In this document: piece after piece, positions 931 through 23,048 of the stretch
Layout: every line of letters starts with the position of its first letter
Numbering within the stretch: the first letter of the stretch is position 1
Origin: an uncultured Actinomycetes bacterium
Lineage (GTDB): Bacteria > Actinomycetota > Thermoleophilia > Gaiellales > JAICJC01
DNA: 64,000 nt
Reading direction: 5' to 3'
Assembly (NCBI GenBank): GCA_963825325.1
Contig: CAWGSU010000004.1
Span: 1,152,334-1,216,333, forward strand
Notes under the pieces: generated by a model
Databases searched by the model: none
What the model was told of the DNA's origin: nothing
What the model saw: the letters and a program-made list of their open reading frames with translations, nothing else
Translations under genes and position numbers: made by a program

Positions 931-1044
931 CCGGCGGTTTGCCCACTCGGTGAGCCTGGTAGACATCGCGCATCGACCTCTTTGTGGCGCTCGCAACGCG
1001 GCGCCGCGAAGGAGACGTTCAGCACGCCCGAAGGAGATTGGCCC

Positions 1045-1619: not shown

Positions 1620-2731
1620 AGTTCGTCGACGAGTTCCGCAACCCCGAGCTCGGCCGGGCCGTTGCCGGCGAGATCCTGGCGACGGTCGAGGCGGGGCGCC
1701 ACTACAAGATCATGGAGGTGTGCGGCGGGCACACCCACTCGATCTACAAGTACGGCGTGGACGACCTGCTGCCCGCGAACGTCGAGCTCGTCCACGGGCC
1801 GGGCTGCCCCGTGTGTGTGATCCCGATGGGCCGCGTCGACGACGGCATCGCGCTCGCCCACGAGCCGGACGTGATCTTCACCTGCTTCGGGGACATGCTG
1901 CGTGTGCCCGGTGCGAACGGCACGCTGATGGACGCGAAGGCCGAGGGCGCCGACGTGCGCATGGTGTACTCGCCGCTCGACGCGCTGCGCATCGCCCGCG
2001 AGAACCCCGACCGGCAGGTGGTCTTCTACGCGATCGGCTTCGAGACCACCGCGCCGTCGACCGCGCTCACGCTCAAGCGGGCCAAGGCCGAGGGCGTGAC
2101 CAACTTCTCGTGCATGTGCAACCACGTCACGATCGTGCCGCCGCTGCGGGCGCTGCTCGACTCGCCCGACCTGCGCCTGGACGGCTTCATCGGCCCGGGC
2201 CACGTCGCCACCGTCGTCGGCGGGCGCCCGTTCGAGTTCATCCCCGCCGACTACGGCCGTCCAGTGGTGATCTCCGGGTTCGAGCCGCTCGACCTGCTGC
2301 AGTCGGTGCAGATGATCCTGCGCCAGCTCGCCGACGGCCGCTGCCAGGTTGAGAACCAGTACGCGCGGGTGGTGCCGTACGAGGGCAACATGGCCGCCCT
2401 GAAGGTGATGGCCGAGGTGTTCGCGCTGCGGCCGCACTTCGAGTGGCGCGGCCTGGGCTTCATCTCGCAGAGCGCCCTGCGCCTGTCCGACGCCTACCGC
2501 GACCTCGATGCCGAGGTGCGCTACCAGGTGCCGGGCGTGCGCGTGGCCGACCCCAAGGCGTGCCAGTGCGGCGAGGTGCTGAAGGGCGTGATCAAGCCGT
2601 GGGAGTGCAAGGTGTTCGGCAGCGCCTGCACGCCCGAGCACGCGATCGGCACGTGCATGGTCTCGCCCGAGGGGGCGTGCGCCGCCTACTACAACTACGG
2701 CCGCTTCGCCCGCGACCGCGAGGTGGTGTGA
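1616..2731 (+). CDS. hypD: [NiFe]-hydrogenase maturation protein HypD
   Basis: GTG 1616 overlaps the upstream stop (GTGA). Motifs seen are VKFVDEFRNPEL, MEVCGGHTHSIYKYG, GPGCPVCV, FETTAP and the C-terminal CQCGEVL..GTCMVSPEGACAAYY. Confidence 0.95.
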   Translation: MKFVDEFRNPELGRAVAGEILATVEAGRHYKIMEVCGGHTHSIYKYGVDDLLPANVELVHGPGCPVCVIPMGRVDDGIALAHEPDVIFTCFGDMLRVPGANGTLMDAKAEGADVRMVYSPLDALRIARENPDRQVVFYAIGFETTAPSTALTLKRAKAEGVTNFSCMCNHVTIVPPLRALLDSPDLRLDGFIGPGHVATVVGGRPFEFIPADYGRPVVISGFEPLDLLQSVQMILRQLADGRCQVENQYARVVPYEGNMAALKVMAEVFALRPHFEWRGLGFISQSALRLSDAYRDLDAEVRYQVPGVRVADPKACQCGEVLKGVIKPWECKVFGSACTPEHAIGTCMVSPEGACAAYYNYGRFARDREVV

Positions 2732-2732
2732 G

Positions 2733-3827
2733 GTGCCGCGCGCGGCCGACCCCACCGACCGCGAGCAGCGGGTGCTGGACATCATCGAGACGGTGCGCTC
2801 CAAGCCGCCGAAGTTCCGCGATGCGCGCATCACCATGGCCCACGGCGCGGGCGGCAAGGCGACGCAGACGCTGATCGAGGGCCTGCTCGTGCCCGCCTAT
2901 GGGGCGGCCAGCCTCGCCGCGCTCGCCGACGCAGGCGCCGTGTCGGTCGGGGGCGTCGAGCTCGCGTTCACGACCGACAGCTTCGTCGTCAAGCCGATCC
3001 GCTTCCCCGGCGGCTCGATCGGTGAGCTGGCCGTGAACGGCACCGTGAACGACCTCGCCATGGCGGGCGCGCGGCCGCTCGCGCTGACCCTGTCCATGGT
3101 GCTCGAGGAGGGCCTCTCGGCAGACGACCTGCGCGCCGAGGTCGCGGCGATCGCCGCCGCGGCGGCCGCCGCGGGCGTCGAGATCGTCGCCGGCGACACG
3201 AAGGTCGTCGAGCGCGGGCACGCCGACTCGATGTACCTGTGCACGGCGGGGATCGGCCAGGTCGACCCGCGCGCGGCGCTCTCGCCGGCGGGCCTGCGGC
3301 CCGGCGACCGCATCCTCGTCTCGGGCTCGATCGGCGAGCACGGCACGGCGATCATGCTCGCCCGCGGCGAGTTCGACCTCGACGCCGAGGTCGAGTCCGA
3401 CACGTGCTCGCTCTGGCCGGCGGTCGACGCGCTGCTGGACGCCGCCGGCCACGACCTGCGCTGCCTGCGCGACGCCACCCGCGGCGGCGTCGCCTCGGTG
3501 CTGAACGAGCTCGCGCGCGCCTCGGGGGTGGCCATGGTCGTGCGCGAGGCGGATGTGCCGGTGCTGCCCGCGGTCGCGGGCGCGGCGGAGCTGCTCGGCA
3601 TCGACCCGATGTATGTCGCGAACGAGGGCAAGCTCGTCGCCTTCGTCGCGCCCGAGCGGTGCGAGGCGGCGCTCGCCGCGCTGCGGGCCGTGCCCGGGTG
3701 CGAGCGGGCGGTCGAGATCGGCGAGGTCAAGACCGACCCGCCGGGGATGGTGTTGGTGGAGACGGCGTTCGGCGGCAAGCGGGTCATGGACCAGCTCGTC
3801 GGCGATCCGCTGCCCAGGATCTGTTGA
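2733..3827 (+). CDS. hypE: [NiFe]-hydrogenase maturation protein HypE (carbamoyl dehydratase)
   Basis: The layout is AIR-synthase-like. Motifs seen are MAHGAGGKATQTLIE, AGDTKVVERG and the C-terminal DPLPRIC. Confidence 0.95.
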   Translation: MPRAADPTDREQRVLDIIETVRSKPPKFRDARITMAHGAGGKATQTLIEGLLVPAYGAASLAALADAGAVSVGGVELAFTTDSFVVKPIRFPGGSIGELAVNGTVNDLAMAGARPLALTLSMVLEEGLSADDLRAEVAAIAAAAAAAGVEIVAGDTKVVERGHADSMYLCTAGIGQVDPRAALSPAGLRPGDRILVSGSIGEHGTAIMLARGEFDLDAEVESDTCSLWPAVDALLDAAGHDLRCLRDATRGGVASVLNELARASGVAMVVREADVPVLPAVAGAAELLGIDPMYVANEGKLVAFVAPERCEAALAALRAVPGCERAVEIGEVKTDPPGMVLVETAFGGKRVMDQLVGDPLPRIC

Positions 3828-3855
3828 ACCACGCGGTTCCGAGAGGGAGGGTGAC

Positions 3856-4935
3856 TTGGCCACAGTCGAGTTCGTACCGAACCAGCAGCAGACCGAAGGC
3901 ATCACTGCCCACGTCCTGTGGATGACCACGGGGCTCTCGTGCGAAGGCGACTCGGTCGCGATGACCGCGGCCACGAACCCGAGCCTCGAGGACATCATCA
4001 CCGGCGTCATCCCCGGGATGCCGCGCGTCGTCATCCACAACCAGGTGATCGCCTACGAGGTCGGCCAGGAGTACATCCAGTCCTGGTACGACGCCGAGGC
4101 GGGCAAGCTCGACCCCTTCGTGCTGATCATCGAGGGCTCGATCGGCAACGAGAACATCAACGGCGAGGGCCACTGGTCGGGGTTCGGCGTCCACCCCGAC
4201 ACCGGCCAGCCGATCACCACCAACGACTGGATCGACCGGCTCGCGAACAAGGCGGCGGCGGTCGTCGCCATCGGCACCTGCGCGACCTACGGCGGCATCC
4301 CCGCCATGAAGAACAATCCCACCGGCGCGATGGGCCTGCCCGACTACCTGGGCTGGAACTGGAAGTCGAAGGCCGGCCTGCCCGTCGTGTGTATCCCCGG
4401 CTGCCCGGCGCAGCCCGACAACATGACCGAGACCCTGCTCTACCTCGTCCTGCACCTGGGCGGCCTTGCGCCCGCGCCGGAGCTCGACGACCAGCTGCGG
4501 CCGAAGTGGCTCTTCGACCGCACGACGCACGAGAGCTGCAACCGGGCCGGCTTCTACGAGATGGGCAACTTCGCCACCGAGTACGGCTCCGACCACCGCT
4601 GCCTGGTCAAGCTGGGCTGCGAAGGCCCGATCGTGAAGTGCAACGTGCCGGTGCGCGGCTGGGTCAACGGCATCGGCGGATGTCCCAACGTCGGCGGGAT
4701 CTGCATGGCCTGCACGATGCCCGGCTTCCCCGACAAGTACCTCCCGTTCATGCAGGAGGCGCCGCGATCACGGGTGACGACGATCCCCGCCCGGCTGACC
4801 TACGGCCCGATCTACAAGTTCCTGCGCAGCTGGGAGATCCGCCACAACGGCGACACCGAGCCCACCTGGCGCCACAACCGGAACGAGCTCACGAGCGGGT
4901 ACCAGCCCCGGAACTACGCCCGGAAGGGAGCATGA
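3856..4935 (+). CDS. hhyS: [NiFe]-hydrogenase small subunit, group-1h-like (no Tat signal)
   Basis: TTG 3856 lies 5-6 nt after GAGGGAGG. There is no RRxF twin-arginine motif. The first cluster motif is SCEGD (Asp where canonical enzymes have CxGC). Other motifs are GTCATYGGIPA, IPGCPAQPD and CNVP..GGCPNVGGICMACTMPGFPD. Confidence 0.9.
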   Translation: MATVEFVPNQQQTEGITAHVLWMTTGLSCEGDSVAMTAATNPSLEDIITGVIPGMPRVVIHNQVIAYEVGQEYIQSWYDAEAGKLDPFVLIIEGSIGNENINGEGHWSGFGVHPDTGQPITTNDWIDRLANKAAAVVAIGTCATYGGIPAMKNNPTGAMGLPDYLGWNWKSKAGLPVVCIPGCPAQPDNMTETLLYLVLHLGGLAPAPELDDQLRPKWLFDRTTHESCNRAGFYEMGNFATEYGSDHRCLVKLGCEGPIVKCNVPVRGWVNGIGGCPNVGGICMACTMPGFPDKYLPFMQEAPRSRVTTIPARLTYGPIYKFLRSWEIRHNGDTEPTWRHNRNELTSGYQPRNYARKGA

Positions 4936-4936
4936 C

Positions 4937-6715
4937 GTGACAACGGTCGAGACTCCGCAGGAGCGGAAGGTCATCGTCAAGGAGATGTCGTGGGATCCGA
5001 TCACGCGCATCGTGGGCAGCCTGGGCATCCACACCGAGATCGACTTCACGAACCAGCAGGTGCTCAAGTGCTACTCGACGTCGATGGTGTTCCGCGGGTT
5101 CGACATCTTCATGAAGGGCATCGATCCGCGTGACGCCCACTTCATCACGAGCCGGATCTGCGGCATCTGCGGCGACAACCACTGCACCTGCTCGTGCCTG
5201 AACCAGAACATGGCCTACGGTGTGAAGCCGCCCAAGCTCGGCGACTACGCCTACAACCTGGCCGAGTCGGCCGACTTCATGTTCGACCACGCGATCTTCA
5301 ACGACTGCATGGCCAACGTGGACTTCTGCGAGCAGATGGTCAAGGAGACGAACCCGACCCTGCTGCGCAAGGCCGAGTCGACCCCGTCCCCGCACGGCGA
5401 CATCCACGGCTACAAGACGATCGCCGACATCATGCGGGCGCTCAACCCGTTCACCGGCAGCTTCTATCTCGAGACCCTCCAGGTCGCCCGCTACACGCGC
5501 GAGATGTACTGCCTCTTCGGCGGCCGCCACACGCACCCGTCGACCATCATGCCGGGCGGCGTCTCGGCGGACATCACCCACCAGACGTGCACCGACTACT
5601 ACGTGCGGCTCATGCGCTACATCGAGTACGCCAAGCGCACCGTGCCCATGCACGACGACCTGTACGACTTCTTCCTGCAGGAGCTGCCTGGGTACGACAT
5701 GGTCGGCTACCGCGACACCGACCTGATCTGCTGGGGGTGCTTCGACGATCCCGACTACGTCGACTACAGCTACCGCGGCATGACCGAGTGGGGCCGGCAT
5801 CGCTACATCACGCCCGGCCTGGTCTTCAAGGGCGAGCTGGTGTCGACCGACCTGGTCGAGATCAACCTCGCCATCCGGATCCTGCTCGGGAGCTCCTACT
5901 TCGACGACTGGTCGAGCGAGGAGACGTTCGTGCATACCGATCCGCTCGGGAACCCGGTCGACAAGCGCCACCCGTGGAACAAGGTGACGCTGCCCAAGCC
6001 GCAGAAGCGCGACTGGACGGACAAGTACAGCTGGGTGGTCTCGCCGCGGATGTACGACGCCCGCAACGACACCTACGTCGCCTGCGACACCGGCGGCGGC
6101 CCGTTCGCCCGCCAATGGGTGACGGCGAAGGCCGGCCTGGTCGACATCGGCTACCTGAAGGCCACCGGTCACAGCCTGCAGATGGTGCTCCCGAAGACCG
6201 CCAGCATGCCGGAGATGGAGCTCGAGTGGAAGATCCCGGAGAAGTCGAACGCGATCGAGCGTGACCGGGCCCGCTCCTACCACCAGGCCTACTCGGCCCT
6301 CGTCGGGCTGCACTGCCTCGAGAAGGCCCTGGGCGAGATCCGGGCCGGGCGCACGAAGAGCTGGAACAACTTCAAGGTGCCCCAGGAGGCTGTGAGCGTC
6401 GGCTTCCACGAGGCCGCGCGCGGAGTGCTCTCGCACCACATGGTGATCCGGGGCGGCAAGATCGCGAACTACCAGCCGTACCCGCCGACGCCGTGGAACG
6501 CGAACCCGCGCGACGTCTACGGGACGCCGGGCCCGTACGAGGACGCCGTCCAGAACACCCCCATCTTCGAGGAGAACGGCCCCGAGGACTTCAAGGGAGT
6601 CGACATCATGCGGGCGGTGCGCTCGTTCGACCCGTGCCTGCCGTGTGGCGTGCACATGTACACGGGGGCCGGACGGGTGCGCAAGGTGGAGCATCGCCCG
6701 ACCGGACTCTGCTGA
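4937..6715 (+). CDS. hhyL: [NiFe]-hydrogenase large subunit, group-1h-like
   Basis: The N-terminal Ni-binding motif is SRICGICGDNHCTCS. The C-terminal motif is SFDPCLPCGVHMY, followed by a 17-aa tail that would be removed by the endopeptidase. GTG 4937 lies 1 nt after the small-subunit stop. Confidence 0.95.
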   Translation: MTTVETPQERKVIVKEMSWDPITRIVGSLGIHTEIDFTNQQVLKCYSTSMVFRGFDIFMKGIDPRDAHFITSRICGICGDNHCTCSCLNQNMAYGVKPPKLGDYAYNLAESADFMFDHAIFNDCMANVDFCEQMVKETNPTLLRKAESTPSPHGDIHGYKTIADIMRALNPFTGSFYLETLQVARYTREMYCLFGGRHTHPSTIMPGGVSADITHQTCTDYYVRLMRYIEYAKRTVPMHDDLYDFFLQELPGYDMVGYRDTDLICWGCFDDPDYVDYSYRGMTEWGRHRYITPGLVFKGELVSTDLVEINLAIRILLGSSYFDDWSSEETFVHTDPLGNPVDKRHPWNKVTLPKPQKRDWTDKYSWVVSPRMYDARNDTYVACDTGGGPFARQWVTAKAGLVDIGYLKATGHSLQMVLPKTASMPEMELEWKIPEKSNAIERDRARSYHQAYSALVGLHCLEKALGEIRAGRTKSWNNFKVPQEAVSVGFHEAARGVLSHHMVIRGGKIANYQPYPPTPWNANPRDVYGTPGPYEDAVQNTPIFEENGPEDFKGVDIMRAVRSFDPCLPCGVHMYTGAGRVRKVEHRPTGLC

Positions 6716-6725
6716 GAGGAGCGGC

Positions 6726-7568
6726 ATGAACGACCCGATGGAGCGGGTCTCCGAGCTCACCGCGGCCCTCGAAGCGCTCGAGGACGGGGATGCCCGCAGG
6801 CTGGCCGAGGAGCTCGTCGGGGCGGTGGTCGACCTCTACGGAGAGGGCCTCGCTCGCATCATGGACGTGCTCGCCGACGATTCCCTGGCCGCCGGCGAGC
6901 TGCGGGGACGGTTGGCGGCCGACGGCCTGGTCGCCAGCCTCCTGCTCGTGCACGACCTCTATCCGGTGCCGCTCGAGGAGCGCGTGCTCGCGGCGCTTGC
7001 CTCGGTGCGTCCCTACATGGAGTCGCACGGCGGCGACGTCGAGCTGCTTGGGATCGACGCGGGGGTGGCGCGGCTGCGCCTGGTCGGCCACTGCCATGGC
7101 TGCCCGGCGTCGATGCAGACGCTCGAGCTCGCAATCACCGACGCGCTCGAGGAGCGGGCGCCCGACCTGCTGGGCGTCGAGGTCGAGGGCCTGGCCGAGC
7201 CCGCGCAGCCGGCCGGCGGCGGCATGACCGCGATCCGGGGCCGGCTGGCGGCGCCCACCTGGCTCCCGGTCGAGGCGGCGGGCGACGTCGCCCCCGGCGC
7301 GGTCGCGACGGTGACGCTGCGCGGTGCCGAGATGGTGGTCGCAAACGTCGCGGGCACCCTGCTCGCCTACCGCAGCGAGTGCCCGTGCTGCGGCAGCGGC
7401 CTTGCCGACGCGACCCTCGAGGGCGAGATCCTCGCCTGTGACAAGTGTCACCACGGGTACGTGCTCACCGAGGCCGGCCGGGCCGTCGGCTCCGACGACG
7501 TCCATCTCGATCCGGTGCCGCTGCTTCGGCGTGACGGCGTCGGGGTCGCCGTGGCGGTCGCCACGTGA
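6726..7568 (+). CDS. Hydrogenase-associated NifU-like / Cys-rich Rieske-like two-domain protein (HhyE/HucE-like)
   Basis: The NifU C-terminal-type motif is VRPYMESHGGDVELLGI..RLVGHCHGCPASMQTL. The C-terminal domain carries ECPCCG-x15-CDKCHHGY. ATG 6726 is in frame with ORF 6645..7568. Confidence 0.75.
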   Translation: MNDPMERVSELTAALEALEDGDARRLAEELVGAVVDLYGEGLARIMDVLADDSLAAGELRGRLAADGLVASLLLVHDLYPVPLEERVLAALASVRPYMESHGGDVELLGIDAGVARLRLVGHCHGCPASMQTLELAITDALEERAPDLLGVEVEGLAEPAQPAGGGMTAIRGRLAAPTWLPVEAAGDVAPGAVATVTLRGAEMVVANVAGTLLAYRSECPCCGSGLADATLEGEILACDKCHHGYVLTEAGRAVGSDDVHLDPVPLLRRDGVGVAVAVAT

Positions 7569-8212
7569 GCGCGGGCGTCCCTCCCTCTGCGCCCAACCCC
7601 GAGGTGGTCACGAGCCTGCGCCGGCTGGCGCGGTCGCGTACGGCGGCTGCGCCGCCGGCGGCCGCTCCGGCCGGCGCGCGCTGCGACCTGTGCGGCACGA
7701 CGATCGACGAGGAGCACCGCCACCTGCTCCAGCTCGCCGAGCACCGCATCCTGTGCGCGTGCGAGCCGTGCTTCGCCATGCGGGCGGGCGATCCCGATCT
7801 GCGCCCGACGGGGACGCGGGTGGCGGTGCTGAACGGCTTCGACCTCCCCGACGAGCTCTGGGCCGCGTTCCAGATCCCGATCGGCCTCGCGTTCTTCTTC
7901 CGCACCGCCGACGGCGTCGTGGCGTTCTATCCCAGCCCGGCCGGAGCGACCGAGTCGGAGCTCTACCTCGAGGCGTGGGACGACCTGGTGGCCAGAAACG
8001 CCGCGCTCGCCGGCCTCGAGCAGGAGGTCGAGGCGCTGATCGTCGACCGCTTGAGCGAGCCGCGCAACTACGCGATCGTCCCCATCGACCGCTGCTACGA
8101 GCTCGTCGGCGCGATCAAGGCGAGCTGGCAGGGCATCTCGGGCGGGAGCGCGGTCGAGGATGCGGTGGCCGCGTTCTTCGCCGCGTTGCACGGGCGCCGG
8201 AGCGTCGCGTGA
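7565..8212 (+). CDS. Uncharacterised hydrogenase-cluster protein with CxxC..CxCxxC motif (recalls DUF5947, from memory)
   Basis: The start has a 4-nt overlap (GTGA) with the upstream gene. The Cys motif is ARCDLCGTTIDEEHRHLL..ILCACEPCF. It is on the same strand, and the codon bias matches its neighbours. Confidence 0.7.
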   Translation: MSAGVPPSAPNPEVVTSLRRLARSRTAAAPPAAAPAGARCDLCGTTIDEEHRHLLQLAEHRILCACEPCFAMRAGDPDLRPTGTRVAVLNGFDLPDELWAAFQIPIGLAFFFRTADGVVAFYPSPAGATESELYLEAWDDLVARNAALAGLEQEVEALIVDRLSEPRNYAIVPIDRCYELVGAIKASWQGISGGSAVEDAVAAFFAALHGRRSVA

Positions 8213-8868
8213 GCGCGGTCCCGGCGCTCGAGTTCACGGTGCTCGGGGCGTCGTGCGTCGAGGACGCCGCCGCGCCGACCCTGCGCGTCGACCTCGGCGT
8301 GAGCGAGAGCGCCGGCCTCGAGGTGTTCACGATCGCGCTCACCGCCCAGATCAACATCGACCCGTCGCGGCGCAGCTACGACCCCGAGACGCGCACGCGC
8401 CTGATCGAGCTCTTCGGCGAGCCGGAGCGATGGTCTCAGACGACGCACAGCTTCCTGTGGGCCTACTCGAGCGCGCTCGTGCCGAGCTTCACCGGCACGA
8501 CCACCTTCTCGCTCCCGATCGCGTGCACGTACGACCTCGAGGTGGCGGCGACCAAGTACTTCGCCGGTCTGCCCGGCGGGCACGTCCCGCTCACGTTCCA
8601 CTTCAACGGCTCGATCCTGCACCGGGCTCCGGGCGGCGACATCCAGGTGGTCGCGATCCCGTGGTCGTGCTCCGCCCGCTGGCGGATGCCGGTCGAGACG
8701 TGGCGGGGGATGATGGACCGCCACTACCCGAACTCGAGCTGGGTGCGGCTGCACCCTGACACGACCGACTCGCTGCGCAGGTACACCGCCGAGGCGGGCC
8801 TGTTCTCGATGGATGCCGCGATCGTGCGGCTGCTCGAGTCGGCGACGTCGCCCGAGGCCGGCGCATGA
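8209..8868 (+). CDS. Uncharacterised hydrogenase-cluster protein (recalls DUF6084, from memory)
   Basis: GTG 8209 overlaps the upstream stop (GTGA) and is in frame with ORF 7324..8868. The sequence reads VSAVPALEFTVLGASCVEDAAAPTL..IALTAQINIDPSRRSYD. Confidence 0.7.
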   Translation: MSAVPALEFTVLGASCVEDAAAPTLRVDLGVSESAGLEVFTIALTAQINIDPSRRSYDPETRTRLIELFGEPERWSQTTHSFLWAYSSALVPSFTGTTTFSLPIACTYDLEVAATKYFAGLPGGHVPLTFHFNGSILHRAPGGDIQVVAIPWSCSARWRMPVETWRGMMDRHYPNSSWVRLHPDTTDSLRRYTAEAGLFSMDAAIVRLLESATSPEAGA

Positions 8869-9746
8869 GCGCCGACGCGGCACTCGAGTCGCTGCTCGAC
8901 GCGCTCCTCTACGAGGGCTACGCGCTCTATCCATACACCGGGACAGCGGCCAAGAACGCGACCCCGACGCCCTTCGGGATCGTCTACCCGCCCGCCTATG
9001 CCCACGCCGCCCCGGCCGCGTTCGACATGCTGCGCATGCACGGCGTGGTGCAGGGCAACGGCGACGCCTCGGTGGCGGCCGAGGTGCGGCTGCTGCAGGC
9101 CGCGCCGGAGGGCGGGCACCGGGCGCTCGAGCGGCGGCTGCCCGCGCTTGCGGGGACGCTTGCCGGCCTGGCCGAGAGCTCCCACGTCGAGACGTTCGGC
9201 CTGAACGGCATCTCGGGCCGGGTGCGGCTCTCGGTGCGACCGCTGCATCCCGACGTCTGGCGGATCGCGCTCTGCGTGCACAACACGACGTCGGTGCCGC
9301 CCGGCGTTGATCGCACCACCGCACTGCGCTCGAGCCTGCTCTCGACCCACCCGGTGGTGCGGGTGGGCGGCGCGCGCTTCGCGTCGCCGCTCGAGCGGAC
9401 GGGCGTGCTCGGCCATGCCGTGTCCGGCTGCGGGAGCATCAACACCTATCCCGTGCTCGCGGGGGAGGCCGACGACGTGCTCGTCGGGGCGACGATCATG
9501 CTCCCCGACCACCCGCAGCTCGCGCCCGAGAGCCGTGGCAACCTGTTCGACGGCACCGAGATCGAGGAGGCGCTGCTCCTGCATGTGATGGCGCTCTCCG
9601 ACGACGAGCGCGATCAGGTGACGGGCGGCGACCCGGCGCTGCGCGAGATGGTCGAGCGGGCGGCGGCGGCGACGCCGGAGGACCTGCTGCGGCTGCACGG
9701 CCGCACCGTGCTGTCCGACCCCGCGCCGGAGGGGGGACGGTCATGA
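8865..9746 (+). CDS. Uncharacterised hydrogenase-cluster protein (293 aa)
   Basis: It overlaps both neighbours by ATGA. It begins MSADAALESLLDALLYEGYALYPYT. I recognise no motif. Confidence 0.7.
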   Translation: MSADAALESLLDALLYEGYALYPYTGTAAKNATPTPFGIVYPPAYAHAAPAAFDMLRMHGVVQGNGDASVAAEVRLLQAAPEGGHRALERRLPALAGTLAGLAESSHVETFGLNGISGRVRLSVRPLHPDVWRIALCVHNTTSVPPGVDRTTALRSSLLSTHPVVRVGGARFASPLERTGVLGHAVSGCGSINTYPVLAGEADDVLVGATIMLPDHPQLAPESRGNLFDGTEIEEALLLHVMALSDDERDQVTGGDPALREMVERAAAATPEDLLRLHGRTVLSDPAPEGGRS

Positions 9747-10039
9747 TGGAGGGGTTCGGCGCGCGCGGCGAGCCGCCGGTCGGCGAGGAGCAGGCCGTGG
9801 TCGACGGCGTCACCTACCGCCGGGGCGACAAGGTGCGCCTGCGGCTGACCGAGCGCACCGACCCGTACGACCGCATCCTCGACGGCAGGGTGGCGACGCT
9901 CGAGCGGATCTACTACGACTACGAGGACAAGCTCTACTTCGGTGCGACGATCGACGACGACCCGGGGCAGGACCTGATGCGCGAGACCGGCCGGTTCCTG
10001 TTCTTCTTCGCAGGCGAACTGGAGGCATACCCGACGTGA
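9743..10039 (+). CDS. Uncharacterised small hydrogenase-cluster protein (98 aa)
   Basis: It has an ATGA overlap upstream and a GTGA overlap downstream. The sequence includes ..DGRVATLERIYYDYEDKLYFGATIDDDPG. Confidence 0.65.
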   Translation: MMEGFGARGEPPVGEEQAVVDGVTYRRGDKVRLRLTERTDPYDRILDGRVATLERIYYDYEDKLYFGATIDDDPGQDLMRETGRFLFFFAGELEAYPT

Positions 10040-10551
10040 CAGACCGTAACGAGAAGCAGATCCTGGTGGCGGGCATCGGCAACTCGTGGCTGCGCGACGA
10101 CGGCTTCGGCGGCGAGGTCGCCCGCCGACTTGCCGGGCGCGAGCTGCCGGCCGGCGTGACGGTCGCCGACTTCGGCACCGGCGGGCTCGACCTGGCCTAC
10201 GAGGTCATGCGCGGCTACGACGCGCTCGTCCTGATCGATGTCAGCCGCCAGGGCGAGCCGCCTGGCACGCTGTACGTGATGGAGGCCGACGAGGCCGACG
10301 TCGCCGCCGGGATCGCCGATGGTGACATGATCGACCCGCATGCGATGGATCCCGAGAGCGTGCTGCGCTTCGTCAAGGCCGTCGGCGGCTGGCCGGGCAA
10401 GGTGATCGTGATCGCCTGTGAGCCGGACGAGGTCGAGGAGGTCGGGATCGGCCTTTCGGGCCCGATCGCGGCGTCGATCGACCGCGCGGTCGAGCTCGTC
10501 CTGGAGACGATCGCGGGTCTGCGCGGCGATGCCCCTCTCGAGGTGGGCTGA
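10036..10551 (+). CDS. Hydrogenase maturation endopeptidase (HyaD/HupD family)
   Basis: Motifs seen are ILVAGIGNSWLRDDGFGGEV, DFGTGGLDLAYEV and ALVLIDV..GEPPGTLY. Confidence 0.9.
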   Translation: MTDRNEKQILVAGIGNSWLRDDGFGGEVARRLAGRELPAGVTVADFGTGGLDLAYEVMRGYDALVLIDVSRQGEPPGTLYVMEADEADVAAGIADGDMIDPHAMDPESVLRFVKAVGGWPGKVIVIACEPDEVEEVGIGLSGPIAASIDRAVELVLETIAGLRGDAPLEVG

Positions 10552-10558
10552 AAGCCCC

Positions 10559-10921
10559 ATGCACGAGCTGTCCGTCGCGAGTGCCGTCGTCGACACCGCC
10601 ACCCGCCACGCCGAGGGCCGCCGCGTGACGGCGGTGCAGCTGCGCGTCGGACACCTGCGCCAGGTCGTGCCCGACTCGCTCGCGTTCTACTTCGACCACG
10701 TCGCCGTCGGCACGCTCTGCGAAGGCGCCCGGCTGGAGCAGCAGATCGTGCCGGCGCGCCTCGTGTGCGAGGCCTGCAAGCACGAGTGGGAGCTCGGCGA
10801 GGCGATGTTCCGCTGCCCCCGCTGCGACGCCACGCGGGTGCAGATCACGGCCGGCAACGAGCTCTGTGTCGAGTCGATCGAAGTCGAGGAGCGGGAGGCC
10901 GCATGCATCGCACCAAGGTGA
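10559..10921 (+). CDS. hypA: Nickel-inserting maturation protein HypA
   Basis: The N-terminus has the MHE motif. The zinc site is CEACKHEW..CPRCD. ATG 10559 is in frame with ORF 10418..10921. Confidence 0.9.
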   Translation: MHELSVASAVVDTATRHAEGRRVTAVQLRVGHLRQVVPDSLAFYFDHVAVGTLCEGARLEQQIVPARLVCEACKHEWELGEAMFRCPRCDATRVQITAGNELCVESIEVEEREAACIAPR

Positions 10922-11580
10922 GGGTGCTCGAGGACGTGCTCGACGCGAACGCGACGATCGCACGCGCGAACAGGGACGACTTCGACCGCGCGGGGGTGCG
11001 CGTCGTCAACATGATGAGCTCGCCCGGCGCCGGCAAGACGACGCTGCTCGAGCGCACGCTGGCCGACCTCGCCGGCGTGCGCGTCGGCGTGCTCGAGGGC
11101 GACGTCGCCGGCACGCTCGACGCCGACCGCATCGCGGGCATCCACGTCCCGGTGACGCAGATCAACACCGAGGCCGGCTTCGGCGGCGAGTGCCATCTCG
11201 ACGCGAACATGGTGCGCTCGGCGATCCCGGCGCTGCCGCTGGGCGAGATCGACCTGCTCGTGATCGAGAACGTCGGCAACCTCGTGTGCCCGGCCGAGTT
11301 CCGGGTCGGCGAGGACGTGCGCGTGATGGTCGCGTCGGTCGCCGAGGGCGAGGACAAGCCGCTCAAGTACCCGCTCATGTTCCGCACGTGCGAGCTCGTG
11401 CTCGTGAACAAGATCGACCTGCTGCCGTACGTCGACTTCGACATGGACCGGTTCAACTACCACCTGGACGCGGTCCACCCAGGCGTGCCGCGCCTGCTGA
11501 TGAGCGCGCGCACCGGCGACGGGGTGGATGCGTGGCGCGAGTGGCTGCGCGAGTTCGCGCTCGAGCGCCAGCCGGCGTGA
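10903..11580 (+). CDS. hypB: Nickel-dependent GTPase HypB
   Basis: The protein reads MHRTKVRVLEDVL.. with the SPGAGKTT P-loop, ENVGNLVCPAEF and NKIDLL. It overlaps hypA by 19 nt. I saw no N-terminal CxxCGC motif or His stretch. Confidence 0.9.
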   Translation: MHRTKVRVLEDVLDANATIARANRDDFDRAGVRVVNMMSSPGAGKTTLLERTLADLAGVRVGVLEGDVAGTLDADRIAGIHVPVTQINTEAGFGGECHLDANMVRSAIPALPLGEIDLLVIENVGNLVCPAEFRVGEDVRVMVASVAEGEDKPLKYPLMFRTCELVLVNKIDLLPYVDFDMDRFNYHLDAVHPGVPRLLMSARTGDGVDAWREWLREFALERQPA

Positions 11581-12779
11581 CCGAGACGCGGGCGGCCGAT
11601 CGCGCCCGGCGGGCGCTCGACGACCTGATCGAGCGCCGCGCGGGCGCCGACGCCGCCTTCTTCGCGCAGCACGCCGCCGCGATCGCGAGCCTGTGCCACG
11701 CCATGGCCGAGCGCTTCGCCCGCGGTGGCCGCCTGATCGCCGTCGGCACCTCGCCGCAGGATCGCAGCGACGTGCGCCACGTCGCGGTCGAGTTCGTCCA
11801 TCCCGTGATCGTCGGCAAGCGCGCGCTCCCGGCCGTCGGCCTCGACCCGGCCGCGGGGTCGCTCGCGGGCCAGGTCGGCCTGCTGGCCGAGGCCGACGAC
11901 ATCGTGATCGGCTTCGGCGCCGACGCGGGCGTGGCGGCGGCGATCGCCGTCGCGCGCACGCGCGGCTGCCTGACGGTCGCGTTCGCCCCCGTCGGTGCCG
12001 AGTGGGAGGCGGTGCCTCCGGGCGCGGACACCGCGGTCGACCAGGAGCTCACAGAGACGCTCTACCACCTGCTGTGGGAGCTCGTGCACGTGTTCTTCGA
12101 GCACCGCGGCCTGCTGGCGGGCAGGAGCGCCGGGCCGGTGCACGACTCGGGCGCCTCGGCGTTCCTGTATCCGTTCCTGTCCGAGGGCGAGCACGACCTG
12201 GACGCGGTGCTCGCAGACGTGCGCCGGTCGGTGCTGATGAAGGCCGACGAGGTCGCCGCCCTGCGCGAGCGCACGCTGCGCGAGGGCGCAGACGCGATCG
12301 TCGCGGCCGCGGCCGCGCTGCGGGCCGTCCTCGACGACGGCGGCACCGTGCTCGCGTTCGGAAACGGCGGCTCGGCCACCGACGCGATGGATCTCGTCGC
12401 CGACCTGCGCGCCGGCCTGCGGCCGCGGCGCGCGCTCGACCTGACCGAGGACTCGGGCATCCTGACCGCGCTTGCGAACGACATCGGCCCCGACGTGCTG
12501 TTCGCCCGCCAGGTGATCGCCTACGGCCGGCCGGGCGACGCCGCGGTGGCACTCTCGACGAGCGGCGGCTCCGAGAACATCATCGCCGGCCTGGCCGAGG
12601 CCCGTCGGCGCGGCCTCGTGACGGTGGCGCTGGTCGGCTACGACGGCGGCCGCATCGCCGCCGAGCGCCTGGCCGACCACGTCGTCGTGACGCCGTCGCA
12701 GCACATCCCCCGCATCCAGGAGGCGCAGGCGAGCGCCTACCACGCGCTGCGCGAGCTGATCGAGCTCGCGGGCGGATAG
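11577..12779 (+). CDS. Tandem SIS-domain protein (GmhA/phosphoheptose-isomerase-like), last gene of the hydrogenase locus
   Basis: GTG 11577 overlaps the hypB stop. The C-terminal half reads GGTVLAFGNGGSATDAMDL..ALSTSGGSENI..VALVGYDGG. The N-terminal half is a degenerate SIS copy (GGRLIAVGTSPQDRSD). Confidence 0.8.
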   Translation: MTETRAADRARRALDDLIERRAGADAAFFAQHAAAIASLCHAMAERFARGGRLIAVGTSPQDRSDVRHVAVEFVHPVIVGKRALPAVGLDPAAGSLAGQVGLLAEADDIVIGFGADAGVAAAIAVARTRGCLTVAFAPVGAEWEAVPPGADTAVDQELTETLYHLLWELVHVFFEHRGLLAGRSAGPVHDSGASAFLYPFLSEGEHDLDAVLADVRRSVLMKADEVAALRERTLREGADAIVAAAAALRAVLDDGGTVLAFGNGGSATDAMDLVADLRAGLRPRRALDLTEDSGILTALANDIGPDVLFARQVIAYGRPGDAAVALSTSGGSENIIAGLAEARRRGLVTVALVGYDGGRIAAERLADHVVVTPSQHIPRIQEAQASAYHALRELIELAGG

Positions 12780-12785
12780 GCGCGC

Positions 12786-14003
12786 TCAGACCTCGGCCGC
12801 CAACGTGTCGGGGTCGGCGGCCACAGCGGCGAGGGGGTCGCCGCGCAGCCGCAGCCCGAGCATCGGGTAGACGAGCGTCGAGAGCACCGCCGCGCCGATG
12901 AGGGCGGCGGCGGTCGACGCCCGCATGTGGCCGGTCCTCGTTGCGAGCGTCGTGATCGCGAGGACGAGCGGCAGCTGCGTCGATGACATCAGCGCCAGTG
13001 CGGCCCGTTCACGGGCATCGAGCACCCCCCGGTAGAGCACGAGCGCCGGCGTCCCGCGCACCACGAGGAACAGGAAGAAGAACACCACCATCTTGACGAT
13101 GCCGGAGGGGCTGGAGACGAGCGCGGGCAGGTCCAGGCTCATCCCGCTCGCCACGAAGAAGAACGGCACGAACACGCCGAACGCCACCGCCGTCAGCTTG
13201 GAGTCGAAGGCGGGCAGCTCGCGCGTCTTCAGCACCTGGCGGGTGATCATGCCGGCCGCGAACCCGCCCAAGAGGAGGTCGAGACCGAGCTTGAACGCCA
13301 GGAAGGCGAGCGCGAACACGAGCGCGACGATCCAGCGCACGGCGAGCTGGGAGCTGCTCTCGAGGGTCCGCTCGAACAGCGGAAACGTGCGTGCCGACGA
13401 CCGCACGGCGAAGACGGCGACGCTCACGGCGAGCGCGACGAACGCGATCAGGATGAGGGCGTTGTGCTCGGTGCCCTGGCTGGACAGGAGCAGTGTGAGC
13501 AGAAGGATCGGCCCGAACTCGCCGACGGCGCCCGCGGCCAGCATGTAGGTACCGAAACGGGTGCGCAGCTCGCCGGCGTCGGAGAGGATCGGGATCAGCA
13601 TCCCGATCGCCGTCGTCGCGAGCGCCGATCCGGTGTAGAGCAGCGAGAGCACGACCCCGAACGCGGCCAGCACGCCCCCGATGGTGTAGGCGAGCGCGAG
13701 CGAGAGCCCCCAGCCGAGCAGGCCGAGCCGAAGCGGCGCGCCCCTGATCCGCTGGATGTCGATCTCGTAGCCCGCGAAGAAGAAGAGCAGGCCGAGGCCG
13801 AGGTCGGCGAAGAACGTGACGAACTGGTCGACCTTCAGGCCGAATCCGTGCGGCCCGATGATCACGCCGATCACGAGCTCGATGACGACCACCGGGATGA
13901 GAACGCCGCGCCCGCCTGCCACCGCCGCCAGGCTGCCGGCCAGCGCCGAGGCGGCGACGATGGCGAGAAACGTCGCCGGGTCGACGTGGATCAGGTAGAG
14001 CAT
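12786..14003 (-). CDS. Cation:proton antiporter (Na+/H+ exchanger family)
   Basis: The protein is polytopic, reading MLYLIHVDPATFLAIVAAS..GVIIGPHGFGL..FFFAGYEID. Its ATG overlaps the Fur-like stop (TGATG). The 49-aa N-terminal extension in the track is Arg-rich shadow. Confidence 0.85.
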   Translation of the reverse strand: MLYLIHVDPATFLAIVAASALAGSLAAVAGGRGVLIPVVVIELVIGVIIGPHGFGLKVDQFVTFFADLGLGLLFFFAGYEIDIQRIRGAPLRLGLLGWGLSLALAYTIGGVLAAFGVVLSLLYTGSALATTAIGMLIPILSDAGELRTRFGTYMLAAGAVGEFGPILLLTLLLSSQGTEHNALILIAFVALAVSVAVFAVRSSARTFPLFERTLESSSQLAVRWIVALVFALAFLAFKLGLDLLLGGFAAGMITRQVLKTRELPAFDSKLTAVAFGVFVPFFFVASGMSLDLPALVSSPSGIVKMVVFFFLFLVVRGTPALVLYRGVLDARERAALALMSSTQLPLVLAITTLATRTGHMRASTAAALIGAAVLSTLVYPMLGLRLRGDPLAAVAADPDTLAAEV

Positions 14004-14458
14004 CACGCGCGGCCTTCGGCGTCCGCGCACGCGGCGCACAGCCCGACGATCGGGAAGTGGGTGAAGCGGGCCTGGACGCCGAACCGCTCGTGGATCAGGT
14101 CGCGCACCGGGTCGAGCTCCTCCGGCGCGATGGCGCGCACGGCGCCGCACCCCTCGCAGTAGACGTACTCGCGCTCGCCGGGCACGACCAGGGCGTGCAG
14201 CCCGGGCCCGTGGCCGAGGTGCACGTGGCGCACGACGCCGTGGGCTTCGAGCGTCTCCAGGTTGCGGTACACCGACGCGGTGTCGAGACCGAGGCCGGTG
14301 GCGAGCTGTTCGGCCGATACCGGCCCATCGGCCGCGAACAGCGCCTCGAGCACGAGCCGCCGCGGCGTGGAGATGCGCAGGCCGCGCTCGCGCAACGCCG
14401 CCAGAGCCTCGTCCAGGCCGGCGAACGCGAGCGTCGGGACGCGCGGAGCCTCGGTCAT
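14003..14458 (-). CDS. Fur-family metalloregulator (possibly nickel-responsive, Nur-like)
   Basis: The winged helix reads PRRLVLEALF..SAEQLA..SVYRNLETLEAHGVV. It also has HVHLGHGPGLHA and the CEGCG..CAAC zinc site. Confidence 0.85.
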   Translation of the reverse strand: MTEAPRVPTLAFAGLDEALAALRERGLRISTPRRLVLEALFAADGPVSAEQLATGLGLDTASVYRNLETLEAHGVVRHVHLGHGPGLHALVVPGEREYVYCEGCGAVRAIAPEELDPVRDLIHERFGVQARFTHFPIVGLCAACADAEGRA

Positions 14459-14471
14459 CTCCGCGGAGAGA

Positions 14472-15476
14472 CTATCCCGGCGTGTCGGCTCCGGCGCTCC
14501 AGCGCTCCTCGATACGGCCGAAGTGCCACACCGCGAGCGACACCGCCCATGTGACGACGAACATGCCGACGATCACGAAGCCGACGGCGCTCATGTCGGG
14601 ACCTCCGCCCGCGAAGATCCCGGCGAGCTCGATCGTCCCGACCCCCAGCGCGACCAGGGCCGAGAGCCCGGTGATGGTGATGTTGTAGTAGACCTTGCGC
14701 ACGGGCTGCGAGAACGCCCACCCGTAGGCGAAGTTCATGAACGAGCCGTCGATCGTGTCGAGCAGCGACATGCCGGCGGCGAACAGGATCGGCAGGCACA
14801 GGATCGCGTAGAACGGCAGGCCCGCACCCGCGGCGCCGGCGGCCAGGAAGAGCAGCGCCACCTCGCTGGCCGTATCGAACCCGATGCCGAAGAGCAGGCC
14901 GAGCGGGTACATCTGCCACGGGTGCCGGATCGCGCGGGTGAAGCGGCCGTAGATGCGGTTCAGGAACCCGCGTGTGTTCAGCCGGTGCTCGAGGTCGGCC
15001 TGGTCGTAGCTGCCGCGGCGCATGTCGCGGAAGACTCCGACGATCCCGACCAGAATGATCAGGTTCAGGATTCCGATCACGTACAGGAACGTCCCCGACA
15101 CGCCGGTGCCGACGAGGCCGGTGATGTGATGCAGTCGCGACTCCGGGTTCGTCACGGGGCCGCCCAGCGCGCGCACGCCGATGGCGAACAGGAACGCCAG
15201 CGCGAACACGACCGACGAGTGCCCGAGCGAGAAGAAGAACCCGACGCTCATGGGCCGCTTGCCCTCGGACATGAGCTTGCGCGTGGTGTTGTCGATGGCC
15301 GCGATGTGGTCGGCGTCGAACGCGTGCCGCAGGCCGAGCGTGTAGGCGGTGAGGCCGATCCCGATCGTGAAGGCGCCCGAGTCGCCGAGGCGGTAGTGGT
15401 GAGGCGCGATGACGGCGATCAGCAGGAAGAAGCCGACCACGTGCAGCCCGCCCACGACGATCGCCATCGCCGCCAC
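14472..15476 (-). CDS. NiCoT (HoxN/HupN/NixA) nickel/cobalt permease
   Basis: The signature LRHAFDADHIAAIDNTTRKL is followed by FFFSLGHSSVV. About 8 TM segments are visible. Confidence 0.9.
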   Translation of the reverse strand: MAAMAIVVGGLHVVGFFLLIAVIAPHHYRLGDSGAFTIGIGLTAYTLGLRHAFDADHIAAIDNTTRKLMSEGKRPMSVGFFFSLGHSSVVFALAFLFAIGVRALGGPVTNPESRLHHITGLVGTGVSGTFLYVIGILNLIILVGIVGVFRDMRRGSYDQADLEHRLNTRGFLNRIYGRFTRAIRHPWQMYPLGLLFGIGFDTASEVALLFLAAGAAGAGLPFYAILCLPILFAAGMSLLDTIDGSFMNFAYGWAFSQPVRKVYYNITITGLSALVALGVGTIELAGIFAGGGPDMSAVGFVIVGMFVVTWAVSLAVWHFGRIEERWSAGADTPG

Positions 15477-15546
15477 GCTGCGCCACTGGGCGGCGGTGAG
15501 CGCAGCGCCGATGCGGCGGCGGGTGCGGGTGGGGGCGCCGATTTCT

Positions 15547-15620
15547 CGACCCTAGTTCGGGTCGGTCGCTCCTGCAAGGAGGTCGCGTTAAGCGGCCGGC
15601 GGGCGGTAATCAGGCTGACC
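15547..15620. promoter_or_regulatory. Upstream region of the nickel operon, with GGTAATCAGGCTGACC (15605-15620, third copy of the GTAA-N6-TTAC-like motif) and the inverted repeat CGACCC-N6-GGGTCG (15547-15564)
   Basis: The 16-mer is 13/16 identical to 890-905. It shares the 9-nt run GTAATCAGG with the reverse strand of 915-930. Confidence 0.3.
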
Positions 15621-15632
15621 GCAGAGCGAGTG

Positions 15633-16736
15633 TCAGCGGTCGCGCAGGCGGCCGATGCGCTCGTTCGCGCCCGAGGCCCAGCACGCGCCGCCCGGCGTGC
15701 ACGCGACCGCGTCGAAGCTGCCGGCGTCGAACTGCGTCCACGCAAAGCCGCCGTCGGTGGTGATGTCGCTGCCGGTCAGGCCGACCGCGAGCGCCGTGCC
15801 TGACGTGTGCGGCACCCACGTCGCGCCGGAGCGATAGCCGTCCGGGGCGGCACCCGCGGCGACGAGCGTCCAGGTGCGGCCGCCGTCGCCGGTCAGCGCG
15901 AGCGCGCGCGGCGCCGTCGCCGGTGTGGCGAAGTCGCCGCCGATCGCGAGGCCCTGCGCCTGCGACCGGAAAGCGACCGCGAACACGCCGGCGCTCGCGC
16001 CGCGGTGAAGCGGCGTCTGGGACACCTTCCAGGTGCGGCCGCCGTCGGCGGAGCGGTACACGCGCGAGCCGGCTGGGCCGCCGCTGCCGAACCAGGCGTG
16101 GCGGTGGCCCGAGGTCGTGATGCACTCGTTGCTCGCGGCGAAGCCGTACTCGTTCGGCGCGTGCGCCCTCGGCACGTTGCGGGCCGGGTCGATGCGCCAG
16201 CTGCGCCCGCCGTTCGCCGTGATCAGGATCCGGAAGCGCCCGTTCACGGGGTCGCTCAGGATCAGGCCGTGGCGGCGGTCGAAGAAGGCCATGCAGTCGT
16301 AGAACGCCTGCGGGTTCGCGTTGCGGTTCGTGATCCGCCAGTGCCTGCCGCCGTCGGCGGTGAGGTAGGTGCGGAAGTCTCCGGGCGCGTTTCCGATCGA
16401 CATCAGCACGGCGTGGTTGCGGTCAAACGCCTTCAGGCCGCGGAACTCGAGCGCGCTCGTGCCGGCTGGGCCGACGCTCTGCCATGCGCGGCCGCCGTTC
16501 GTGGTGCGAAGGACGGTGCCGTTGCTGCCGCTCGCCCACGCGACCCGGGCGCTCACGGGGCTGATCGCGCGCAGATCGGCGCTGCCGCCGTGATGGACGA
16601 CCTGCCAGTGCGGGCGGCCGTGCCCGGACGCCGTCGCCACGGCGGCTGCGAGCGCGGTCCCTGCCACGAGCATCACCACGCCGATTCGCGTCCCGATCGG
16701 CACCCTCCCCATGGCGGCCATCATACCCCGCCGCAC
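15633..16736 (-). CDS. Secreted BNR-repeat beta-propeller protein (Ycf48/sialidase-like fold)
   Basis: It has a signal-like N-terminus. Six S/T-x-D/N-G-G-x-x-W repeats are present (TTNGGRAW, TADGGRHW, TANGGRSW, SADGGRTW, TGDGGRTW, TTDGGFAW). Confidence 0.7.
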   Translation of the reverse strand: MRRGMMAAMGRVPIGTRIGVVMLVAGTALAAAVATASGHGRPHWQVVHHGGSADLRAISPVSARVAWASGSNGTVLRTTNGGRAWQSVGPAGTSALEFRGLKAFDRNHAVLMSIGNAPGDFRTYLTADGGRHWRITNRNANPQAFYDCMAFFDRRHGLILSDPVNGRFRILITANGGRSWRIDPARNVPRAHAPNEYGFAASNECITTSGHRHAWFGSGGPAGSRVYRSADGGRTWKVSQTPLHRGASAGVFAVAFRSQAQGLAIGGDFATPATAPRALALTGDGGRTWTLVAAGAAPDGYRSGATWVPHTSGTALAVGLTGSDITTDGGFAWTQFDAGSFDAVACTPGGACWASGANERIGRLRDR

Positions 16737-16769
16737 CGACCGCGGTCAGACCCCTTCTGGTGGACACGT

Positions 16770-22982: not shown

Positions 22983-23048
22983 CCCCTGACCCTAGCGGCG
23001 GCGCGCCGCAGCGGCACTGGTGGTTTCCACCCATTCTGAGGGCGAGGG

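Follow-up and report, generated by a model that had tools for sequence, protein, structure and literature searches.

Gene content of the hydrogenase and nickel permease loci

The stretch of DNA analysed in this work (hereafter the window, 64 kb of its source genome, with a G+C content of 72%) carries a [NiFe]-hydrogenase cluster and the gene of a NiCoT nickel permease, nicT, and the element in question is the region at 15477-15632, which on the - strand lies between the stop codon TGA (15635-15633) of a BNR-repeat protein gene and the first canonical start of the permease, GTG 15476. We consider it probable, on comparative grounds, that this region is the promoter of an operon formed by nicT and the gene of a Nur-like nickel sensor (nicT-nur), and that it receives two regulatory inputs, one from a Crp/Fnr-family regulator encoded beside the hydrogenase genes and the other from the Nur-like sensor itself.

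The regulator gene occupies the left end of the window (2..796, - strand; Pfam HTH_Crp_2, 4.8e-10), where the window stops short of its 3' end, and it probably starts at GTG 796 or TTG 763. Divergent from it runs the hyp/hhy cluster (1045..12779, + strand, by Pfam assignments), composed of hypC (1045), hypD, hypE, the small and large subunits of a [NiFe]-hydrogenase, a NifU-Rieske protein, a DUF5947 protein, a HycI protease and a SIS protein. The large subunit (4937-6715, + strand) shares 97% identity with its counterpart in a Gaiellales metagenome-assembled genome (MAG) and 84-94% with those of many Thermoleophilia MAGs. Its top match in the PDB is 5AA5 (1.5e-277, the next one reaching 2e-44), and this match, along with the NifU-Rieske, DUF5947 and HycI genes, indicates that the enzyme is a group 1h, that is, an actinobacterial-type high-affinity, hydrogenase.

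Convergent to the hyp/hhy cluster, on the - strand, are the BNR gene, nicT, a Fur-family gene and a Na/H exchanger gene. The nicT gene (14472..15542, - strand) is taken here to include a conserved N-terminal extension 5' of GTG 15476 and ATG 15467, and its product is recognised both by Pfam NicO (300.7 bits, 1.4e-89) and by the NCBIfam NicT equivalog model (500.8 bits, for a cut-off of 450). The Fur-family gene (14003..14458, - strand; Pfam FUR), which encodes the Nur-like regulator, lies 13 nt 3' of nicT, so that the two genes probably constitute one operon, and the nicT-fur gene pair is kept in many loci. No relevant Rfam match, NiCo and cobalamin riboswitches included, was obtained in 14000-17000 even at E values up to 1. 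The idea that the regulon extends to a hypF gene at another place in the window was also considered and rejected, the large open reading frames at 20875-25381 being those of a chemoreceptor and a patatin-like protein.

The motif upstream of nicT and the hydrogenase-linked regulator

The predicted regulator site of the nicT promoter (15606..15619, - strand; GTAATCAGGCTGAC, on the coding strand GTCAGCCTGATTAC) was called from its matrix score and its conservation, and it follows the pattern GTCA-N6-TTAC, i.e., GTAA-N6-TTAC with one mismatch. A preliminary description of this DNA had presented it as the third copy of a GTAA-type motif, and the comparison on which it relied was accurate: GGTAATCAGGCTGACC at 15605-15620 is identical to GGTAATCCGGGTTACC (890-905) at 13 of 16 positions, the coordinates being exact, and GTAATCAGG is common to 15605-15620 and to the reverse complement of 916-929 (GTAATCAGGGTTAC). 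Four matches to GTAA-N6-TTAC with at most one mismatch are found in the window, against 0.75 expected in shuffles, a difference that alone is not decisive. The position weight matrix scan that the same description had proposed was run on the window with a matrix derived from 62 different sites upstream of hypC, all of them from other genomes (the training sites score 7-29 bits, with a median of 22.6). It returned 26.3 bits at 891, 22.1 bits at 916 and 19.3 bits at 15606, with 12.8 bits as the next value, placing the nicT site as the third-best match of the window and 6.5 bits above the following one. In the background used for the matrix scan, 2.3 Mb of DNA of fetched relatives, all matches of at least 18 bits are upstream of hypC or of NiCoT only. 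The mismatch carried by the nicT site (TGAC for TTAC) is, moreover, the most frequent variant among the hypC-upstream sites.

The motif is likewise conserved in relatives, whose loci were fetched as +/-10 kb segments and are designated by L-numbers (L001, L161 etc.). Close NiCoT orthologs were collected by a protein database search followed by a look-up of the encoding contigs, and GTCA-N6-TTAC stands upstream of NiCoT in all 11 loci with upstream DNA, in which the permease is from 98% down to 74% identical to that of the window (L161, 98%; L162, 93%; L164, 83%; L165/L166, 80%; L167, 79%; L168-L171, 74-76%; L173, 74%). When six orthologous regions were aligned with MAFFT, the GTCA, C and GATTACC positions were invariant and the neighbouring columns varied, and in L162 a 19-nt insertion adjoins the site. 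The gene upstream of nicT is no longer BNR in L167-L171 and L173, and because the site persists there, the element belongs to nicT; the BNR gene (15633..16736, - strand; weak Pfam BNR matches), which is the 5' neighbour of nicT in the window, is outside the system, since other genes take its place in those loci and the site stays with nicT. The nicT motif is, in our judgement, no chance match.

The same motif occurs twice between hypC and the divergently oriented regulator gene, as a predicted distal site (891..904; GTAATCCGGGTTAC; 26.3 bits) and a predicted promoter-proximal site (916..929; GTAACCCTGATTAC; 22.1 bits) centred at about -49.5. For the comparison of hypC sites with the regulator, 80 loci were fetched with the hydrogenase large subunit as query. 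Every locus with a divergent regulator more than 50% identical to that of the window has GTAA-N6-TTAC 55-160 nt upstream of hypC, usually as two sites 25 or 15 bp apart, of which one is exact and the second is either exact or a GTCA/TGAC variant. Among the same 80 loci, those without the regulator have no GTAA-N6-TTAC site upstream of hypC, and none is found there in the Thermoleophilaceae loci that have only a 36-44% identical paralog. It is mainly because of this pattern of presence and absence across sister genomes that the motif is assigned to the cluster regulator. The paralog of the Thermoleophilaceae presumably recognises a different operator.

Downstream of the proximal site, an extended -10 of the hypC promoter is predicted at 957..965 (+ strand; TGGTAGACA), conserved across 24 loci. 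Among the loci with a recognised -10, TGnTA(G/T)A(C/A)C follows the proximal site at a distance of 30 nt in 19 of 24, of 29 nt in three and of 31 nt in two. This extended -10 is without the usual final T, and a GTTT-type -35 precedes hypC in several genomes, the window having GGTTTG at 936-941. As a whole, the hypC promoter (936-965) resembles what we take to be SigF/SigB-type stress-sigma promoters more than housekeeping ones.

The nicT site and the regulator gene were found together in the window, in L169, where one contig also carries nicT-nur and the hypC sites, and in L165, which is a contig of the same MAG as L001, the latter bearing the regulator gene and the hypC sites. Five loci without the regulator beside hypC (L018, L052, L068, L075 and L076) have no site before NiCoT. 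In five regulator-bearing loci (L006, L020, L022, L032 and L077), NiCoT lies on the strand of the hydrogenase genes, starts at the hypF stop codon or right next to it and has no promoter of its own. Two arrangements thus link nickel import to this hydrogenase, namely operon fusion in these five loci and, in the clade of the window, a probable shared operator.

Concerning the regulator itself, HTH_Crp_2 was the sole domain recognised in the sequence search (4.3e-10 for the L001 ortholog), and no match to Pfam cNMP_binding was obtained. The AlphaFold2 model of the L001 ortholog (pLDDT 85) has whole-length Foldseek matches to MtbCRP, NtcA and GlxR, with target-normalised TM-scores of about 0.75, and according to this model the protein is of the Crp/Fnr fold, with an N-terminal beta-barrel and a long dimerisation helix. 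An FNR-type N-terminal cysteine cluster is found neither in the invariant columns of 40 homologs nor in the sequences. The homologs number more than 2000, all of them generically named and all from MAGs or metagenomes.

In about 30 of the roughly 38 loci with the regulator, its gene is immediately followed by a co-directional gene for a second [NiFe] small-subunit paralog. The identity of this paralog to the main small subunit is 57-65%, with 10 of the 11 aligned cysteines retained, and in loci without the regulator it never adjoins hypC. Examples are found at 3992-5032 (- strand) of L001, 11696-12721 of L169 and 7763-8704 of L107, and the window equivalent would fall to the left of position 1. 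This paralog may act together with the regulator, in a sensory or redox role. The 36-44% Crp-family paralog of the Thermoleophilaceae is encoded divergently from hypC, at about 5300-6100, in 12 loci (L036, L039, L041, L044, L049, L051, L058, L059, L066, L072, L078 and L080), and these have no small-subunit paralog.

Other occurrences of the motif call for separate comment. NiCoT matches were also obtained from a scan of metagenomes, which was the source of L085 and of the Nur-box enrichment data given below; these are at most 72% identical to the window permease, and L001 ends before NiCoT, so that the close orthologs described above were taken from the protein search instead. L085 is a distant metagenomic NiCoT-Fur locus (70% identity), located 3' of a CDGSH protein gene on a contig too short to judge the presence of the regulator; at 1469-1482 it carries GTAACCGCGCTTAC, 84 nt before the NiCoT ATG, in a class II-like position and with no Nur box. 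L107, an outlier, has a weak site before NiCoT. Within the window, the one-mismatch match at 30423 (GTAAAGGCGGTTGC) was discarded as chance, as it scores less than 5.3 bits, falls below the 15 best window matches and contains a TTGC variant never seen in true sites; the match at 43846 scores a low 12.8 bits, in an ambiguous coding context. The main source of false positives below 18 bits is a coding motif, GT(C/G)ATCTGGATGAC, which encodes ..VIWMT.. in hydrogenase small subunits, scores 15-17 bits and recurs near 8930 in L008-L076, as well as at about 5000-5240, downstream of the regulator gene. A GCTGAC...GTCAGC hairpin over the BNR stop codon and the left half of the nicT site was rejected, being kept in neither L164 nor L165, and a consensus scan of the gap for an intrinsic terminator of the BNR gene found none.

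Promoter, start codon and nickel-sensor box of nicT

A -35 hexamer, TTGCAG, is predicted at 15572..15577 (- strand) and a -10 hexamer of the TANNNT type, TAGGGT, at 15549..15554 (- strand). The former is kept as TTGCAG, TTGCAA or ATGCAA in all relatives, 17-18 nt before the -10, and the latter is kept as TAGGGT, TAGGCT, TATGGT or TACGGT. Within the -10 is an in-frame TAG, which bounds the NiCoT open reading frame on its 5' side. In L163, L165, L167, L169 and L170, an ATG or GTG start lies 6-8 nt after the -10. A start codon at this distance is a signature of leaderless mRNAs in Actinomycetota, and because such codons stand just after the -10 in relatives, the transcription start was placed at about 15542, with the mRNA of nicT predicted to be leaderless.

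The codon aligned with the leaderless ATG or GTG of relatives is, in the window, ATC (15540..15542, - strand), where transcription is predicted to start and translation may begin at a non-canonical codon. ATC is also present at this position in L161, L162 and L164, with ATG in L163 and L165 and GTG in L167. From ATC 15542 there is no ATG, GTG or TTG until GTG 15476 or ATG 15467, and the 25 intervening codons are conserved as protein (..TRTRRRIGAALTAAQWRS..), the differences between the window and L164 numbering 1, 3 and 12 at the first, second and third codon positions; the relatives have coding sequence homologous to this N-terminal extension. GTG 15476 was rejected as the true start, since L162 and L164 have GTC in its place and a start there would remove the conserved, QWR-containing extension. 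An AUC start on a leaderless mRNA, conserved in the clade of the window, may be used, although AUG is strongly preferred by leaderless mRNAs (PMC8459731) and AUC would be unusual. The distance of about 130 nt between motif and start given in the preliminary description is right if translation begins at GTG 15476, but the comparative evidence puts the start near 15542.

Measured from its end to the -10, the site is 51 nt away in the window, L161, L162, L164 and L165/L166 (centre at about -70.5) and 40-41 nt away in L167-L171 (centre at -59.5/-60.5), the centres being counted from the predicted start. Sites of class I CRP-type promoters are centred near -61.5, -71.5 or further turns upstream. 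Together with the 30 nt observed at hypC, the spacings form a series of 30, 40-41 and 51 nt, in steps of about 10.5 bp on one helical face, and because of this phasing an activator that contacts RNA polymerase is expected rather than a roadblock. This suggests that the regulator acts as an activator.

The second element is a candidate target of the nickel sensor. The best PDB match of the Fur-like protein is Streptomyces coelicolor Nur (3EYY, 5.6e-16), the next being PerR (2e-9), and it keeps the Ni-site residues His70, His72 and His126 of Nur, the DNA-contact pair Tyr56/Arg57 and the four cysteines. The Nur box has been described as tTGCaa-N5-ttGCAA, with sites at nikA, nikM and sodF of S. 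coelicolor (An et al. 2009, PMC2691836). A 6-5-6 element resembling it, ACGCGA-CCTCC-TTGCAG, is found at 15572..15588 (- strand), where it agrees with the consensus at 8 of 12 positions and its right half is the -35 hexamer; we regard it as a candidate operator. At the same place, relatives have nnGCrA-N5-TTGCAr, with agreement at 9-10 of 12 positions (10 of 12 in L164, L168 and L170). A 6-5-6 match at 10 or more of 12 positions is present in 37 of 94 fetched NiCoT promoters, against 10 of 2000 random segments.

In three loci in which the Crp-like regulator is absent and a nur-like gene occupies its place (L060, L062 and L074), an 11/12 Nur box, TTGCGA-N5-TTGCAA, was observed between hypC and the divergent nur-like gene (4487-4642, 5741-5896 and 5805-5961, respectively), which suggests that the hyp operon is under direct nickel control in them.

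The proposed circuit, competing explanations and known systems

In the circuit that we propose, the Crp/Fnr-family regulator of the hydrogenase cluster would bind the nicT promoter at 15619-15606 (GTCAGCCTGATTAC), the same protein being the predicted ligand of 891-904 and 916-929. About 70 bp upstream of the predicted start, the nicT site would be placed as is typical of class I CRP-type activation, and the regulator would activate nicT along with hyp/hhy, raising nickel import when the high-affinity [NiFe]-hydrogenase is made. When nickel is sufficient, the nickel-loaded Nur-like repressor would occupy the 6-5-6 box at 15588-15572 and occlude the -35. Membership of the nickel permease in the regulon of a hydrogenase-linked Crp/Fnr-type factor, as put forward in the preliminary description, is very probable in view of the 11 orthologous promoters, the co-occurrence with the regulator and the helical phasing. 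The dual control advanced there is plausible as regards the participation of a metal sensor, but the inverted repeat that it had suggested as a possible operator of the sensor is a poor candidate, the conserved one being 15572-15588. The pairing of proteins with elements, the point at which transcription starts, activation as opposed to repression and the signals that are sensed are all predictions derived from sequence comparison.

Several observations weigh against this proposal. The matrix is partly circular, since its training sites were chosen with the same pattern (at most one mismatch). The nicT site and the regulator gene were seen together in just three genomes, the other contigs being too short to tell, and a Crp-family paralog of the same specificity could be the actual binder. 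In L085 an exact site precedes NiCoT at another spacing, 23 nt before a -10-like TAGCGT. An E. coli-type consensus scan found no promoter in the gap, and the -35, the -10 and the start were deduced from conservation only. The hypC site at about -49.5 fits neither the classical class I nor the class II position, and because of this unconventional placement activation is something that we infer. As to the nickel sensor, the M-site residues His33, 86, 88 and 90 are replaced by Phe, Gly, Arg and Tyr; these histidines are needed for DNA binding in S. coelicolor Nur, for which reason we name the protein Nur-like and not a Nur ortholog, and its metal-sensing chemistry may differ from that of Nur. The Nur box of the window is also weak, given that about 9% of random 260-nt segments reach 8/12, what supports it being its location and the boxes of relatives, and the Nur-like input is accordingly less certain than the Crp site.

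The opposite reading of the motif, that it is a chance near-match without function and that nicT is controlled by the nickel sensor only or by read-through from the BNR gene, draws on the 0.75 occurrences of the crude pattern expected per window, on the apparently meaningless one-mismatch match at 30423 and on the five regulator-bearing genomes without a site before NiCoT. Nevertheless, in those five genomes NiCoT is fused behind hypF, the site is invariant down to 74% protein identity while its flanks and the upstream gene change, and the 2.3 Mb of background hold no match of at least 18 bits outside the two promoter types. The differences between the sites exclude that they are assembly copies of one sequence, and we hold a chance origin to be exceedingly improbable. 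A functional site at which the Crp-like protein is a repressor or anti-activator, so that nicT is shut off on binding, has more in its favour, because the hypC sites at about -49.5 and -64.5/-74.5 match no textbook activation class and because autorepression, too, typically involves two sites between divergent genes. It has to be set against the position of the nicT site, which is centred at -60 or -70 without overlapping RNA polymerase, against spacings of 30, 40-41 and 51 nt that keep to one helical face, as for polymerase contact, and against the location of NiCoT inside the hyp operon elsewhere, which implies positive co-expression with the hydrogenase; repression at nicT thus appears unlikely, and activation is the reading that we retain.

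It could also be argued that another factor of similar specificity, for instance a global Crp/NtcA-like paralog, binds these sites and that nicT and hyp share a global input, considering that the specificity of the NtcA type is GTA-N8-TAC, that a 36-44% paralog stands beside hypC in Thermoleophilaceae loci and that only about 64 kb of the genome are visible. However, the hypC motif occurs only where the specific regulator gene is present and not in sister genomes with the paralog alone or with neither, and the window has three strong sites only, all at hyp and nicT, which renders a foreign binder quite improbable and leaves the cluster regulator as the preferred one. The remaining alternative concerns the second input. 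The inverted repeat CGACCC-TAGTTC-GGGTCG is present at 15547-15564 as the preliminary description had it, spanning the end of the promoter spacer and the -10 hexamer, and its overlap with the predicted -10 is a classical location for a repressor; a shifted 6-bp repeat, GCGACC...GGTCGC, is furthermore present in the same region of L164. Yet the left arm is lost in L162 (93%) and L165 (80%), unrelated spacers fill this position in the other relatives, and the GGGT of the right arm belongs to the -10 TAGGGT. A repeat of this size is also expected by chance: a perfect inverted repeat with a stem of at least 6 bp turns up in 49% of composition-matched random 156-mers, and 58% of the 156-nt segments taken from the window itself contain one. 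Nor does the repeat at 15547-15564 resemble the 6-5-6 Nur box, an element kept at the -35 and enriched in NiCoT promoters in general. That CGACCC-N6-GGGTCG is the operator of the Fur-like protein is for these reasons very improbable, and it is doubtful that the repeat has any function of its own.

Of the atmospheric H2 that soils take up, the greater part is consumed by the high-affinity hydrogenases of soil Actinomycetota. The direct transcriptional regulators of these enzymes have been described as still unresolved (Kropp et al. 2026, PMC13098282), and the locus studied here offers a candidate regulator, a well-defined putative operator of 14 bp and a minimal regulon (hyp/hhy and nicT) in Thermoleophilia, which are abundant soil bacteria. 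Two evolutionary routes would couple nickel import to the hydrogenase, either the placement of NiCoT behind hypF or a shared operator with a Nur-type brake. A bolder and, as a whole, rather unlikely extension is that the Crp/Fnr protein is the direct regulator of group 1h hydrogenases in Thermoleophilia and would form with the small-subunit paralog a new H2- or redox-sensing module, which would switch on the enzyme, its maturation genes and, by way of the site at 15606-15619, its nickel supply, nicT being translated without a leader from AUC; in most relatives, the regulator gene is co-directional with this orphan, cysteine-complete paralog, an arrangement that we read as co-transcription.

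The preliminary description had called such a circuit undescribed, which holds for its proteins, its motif and its class of hydrogenase but not for its logic, known from the nik system of E. coli. According to the 2005 work of Rowe, Starnes and Chivers, the E. coli nikABCDE promoter is reportedly activated by FNR and repressed by NikR. Both there and here, a nickel importer that serves a hydrogenase would be turned on by a factor of the Crp/Fnr family, in the same condition as that in which the hydrogenase is produced, and off by a nickel-sensing repressor. Unlike FNR, the regulator described here belongs to a distinct Crp/Fnr subfamily without the FNR cysteine cluster and is encoded in the hydrogenase cluster, and its predicted site is GTAA-N6-TTAC instead of the TTGAT-N4-ATCAA of E. 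coli FNR. The repressor is of the Fur family (Nur-like) and not a NikR, the importer is a NiCoT permease and not an ATP-binding cassette transporter, and the hydrogenase concerned is an aerobic high-affinity enzyme of group 1h. With S. coelicolor Nur, its closest solved relative, the sensor has in common the Fur family, the Ni-site, Tyr56/Arg57, the four cysteines and a candidate 6-5-6 box at the promoter of a nickel importer; it differs in the replacement of the M-site histidines, in the degeneracy of the box (8/12), in the predicted co-transcription of its gene with its target, and in the target itself, which is NiCoT and not NikABCDE or NikMNOQ.

Among regulators of the Crp/Fnr family, cyanobacterial NtcA binds GTA-N8-TAC at -41.5 (PMC3898017). 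The regulator model shares its fold (Foldseek E of about 2e-12), and the motif found here is a subset of the NtcA consensus, whose half-site core is GTA...TAC, whereas the sequence identity is 16-18%, the sites are centred at about -49.5, -60 and -70.5, no sign of 2-oxoglutarate or PipX control was seen, and the regulon would comprise hydrogenase and nickel genes and not nitrogen genes. As for the permease, NiCoT genes of the hoxN/hupN type are found inside the hydrogenase clusters of Cupriavidus necator and Bradyrhizobium. There, as proposed here, NiCoT is dedicated to the nickel of a [NiFe]-hydrogenase, and in five of the relatives the gene directly follows hypF, but the permease of the window is on the opposite strand with its own promoter, and its link to the hydrogenase would be a shared operator and not co-transcription. 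What appears to be new, in comparison with all these systems, is the regulator subfamily with its putative operator, the fact that it would serve a high-affinity hydrogenase of group 1h in particular, and its predicted action on a NiCoT-Nur operon.

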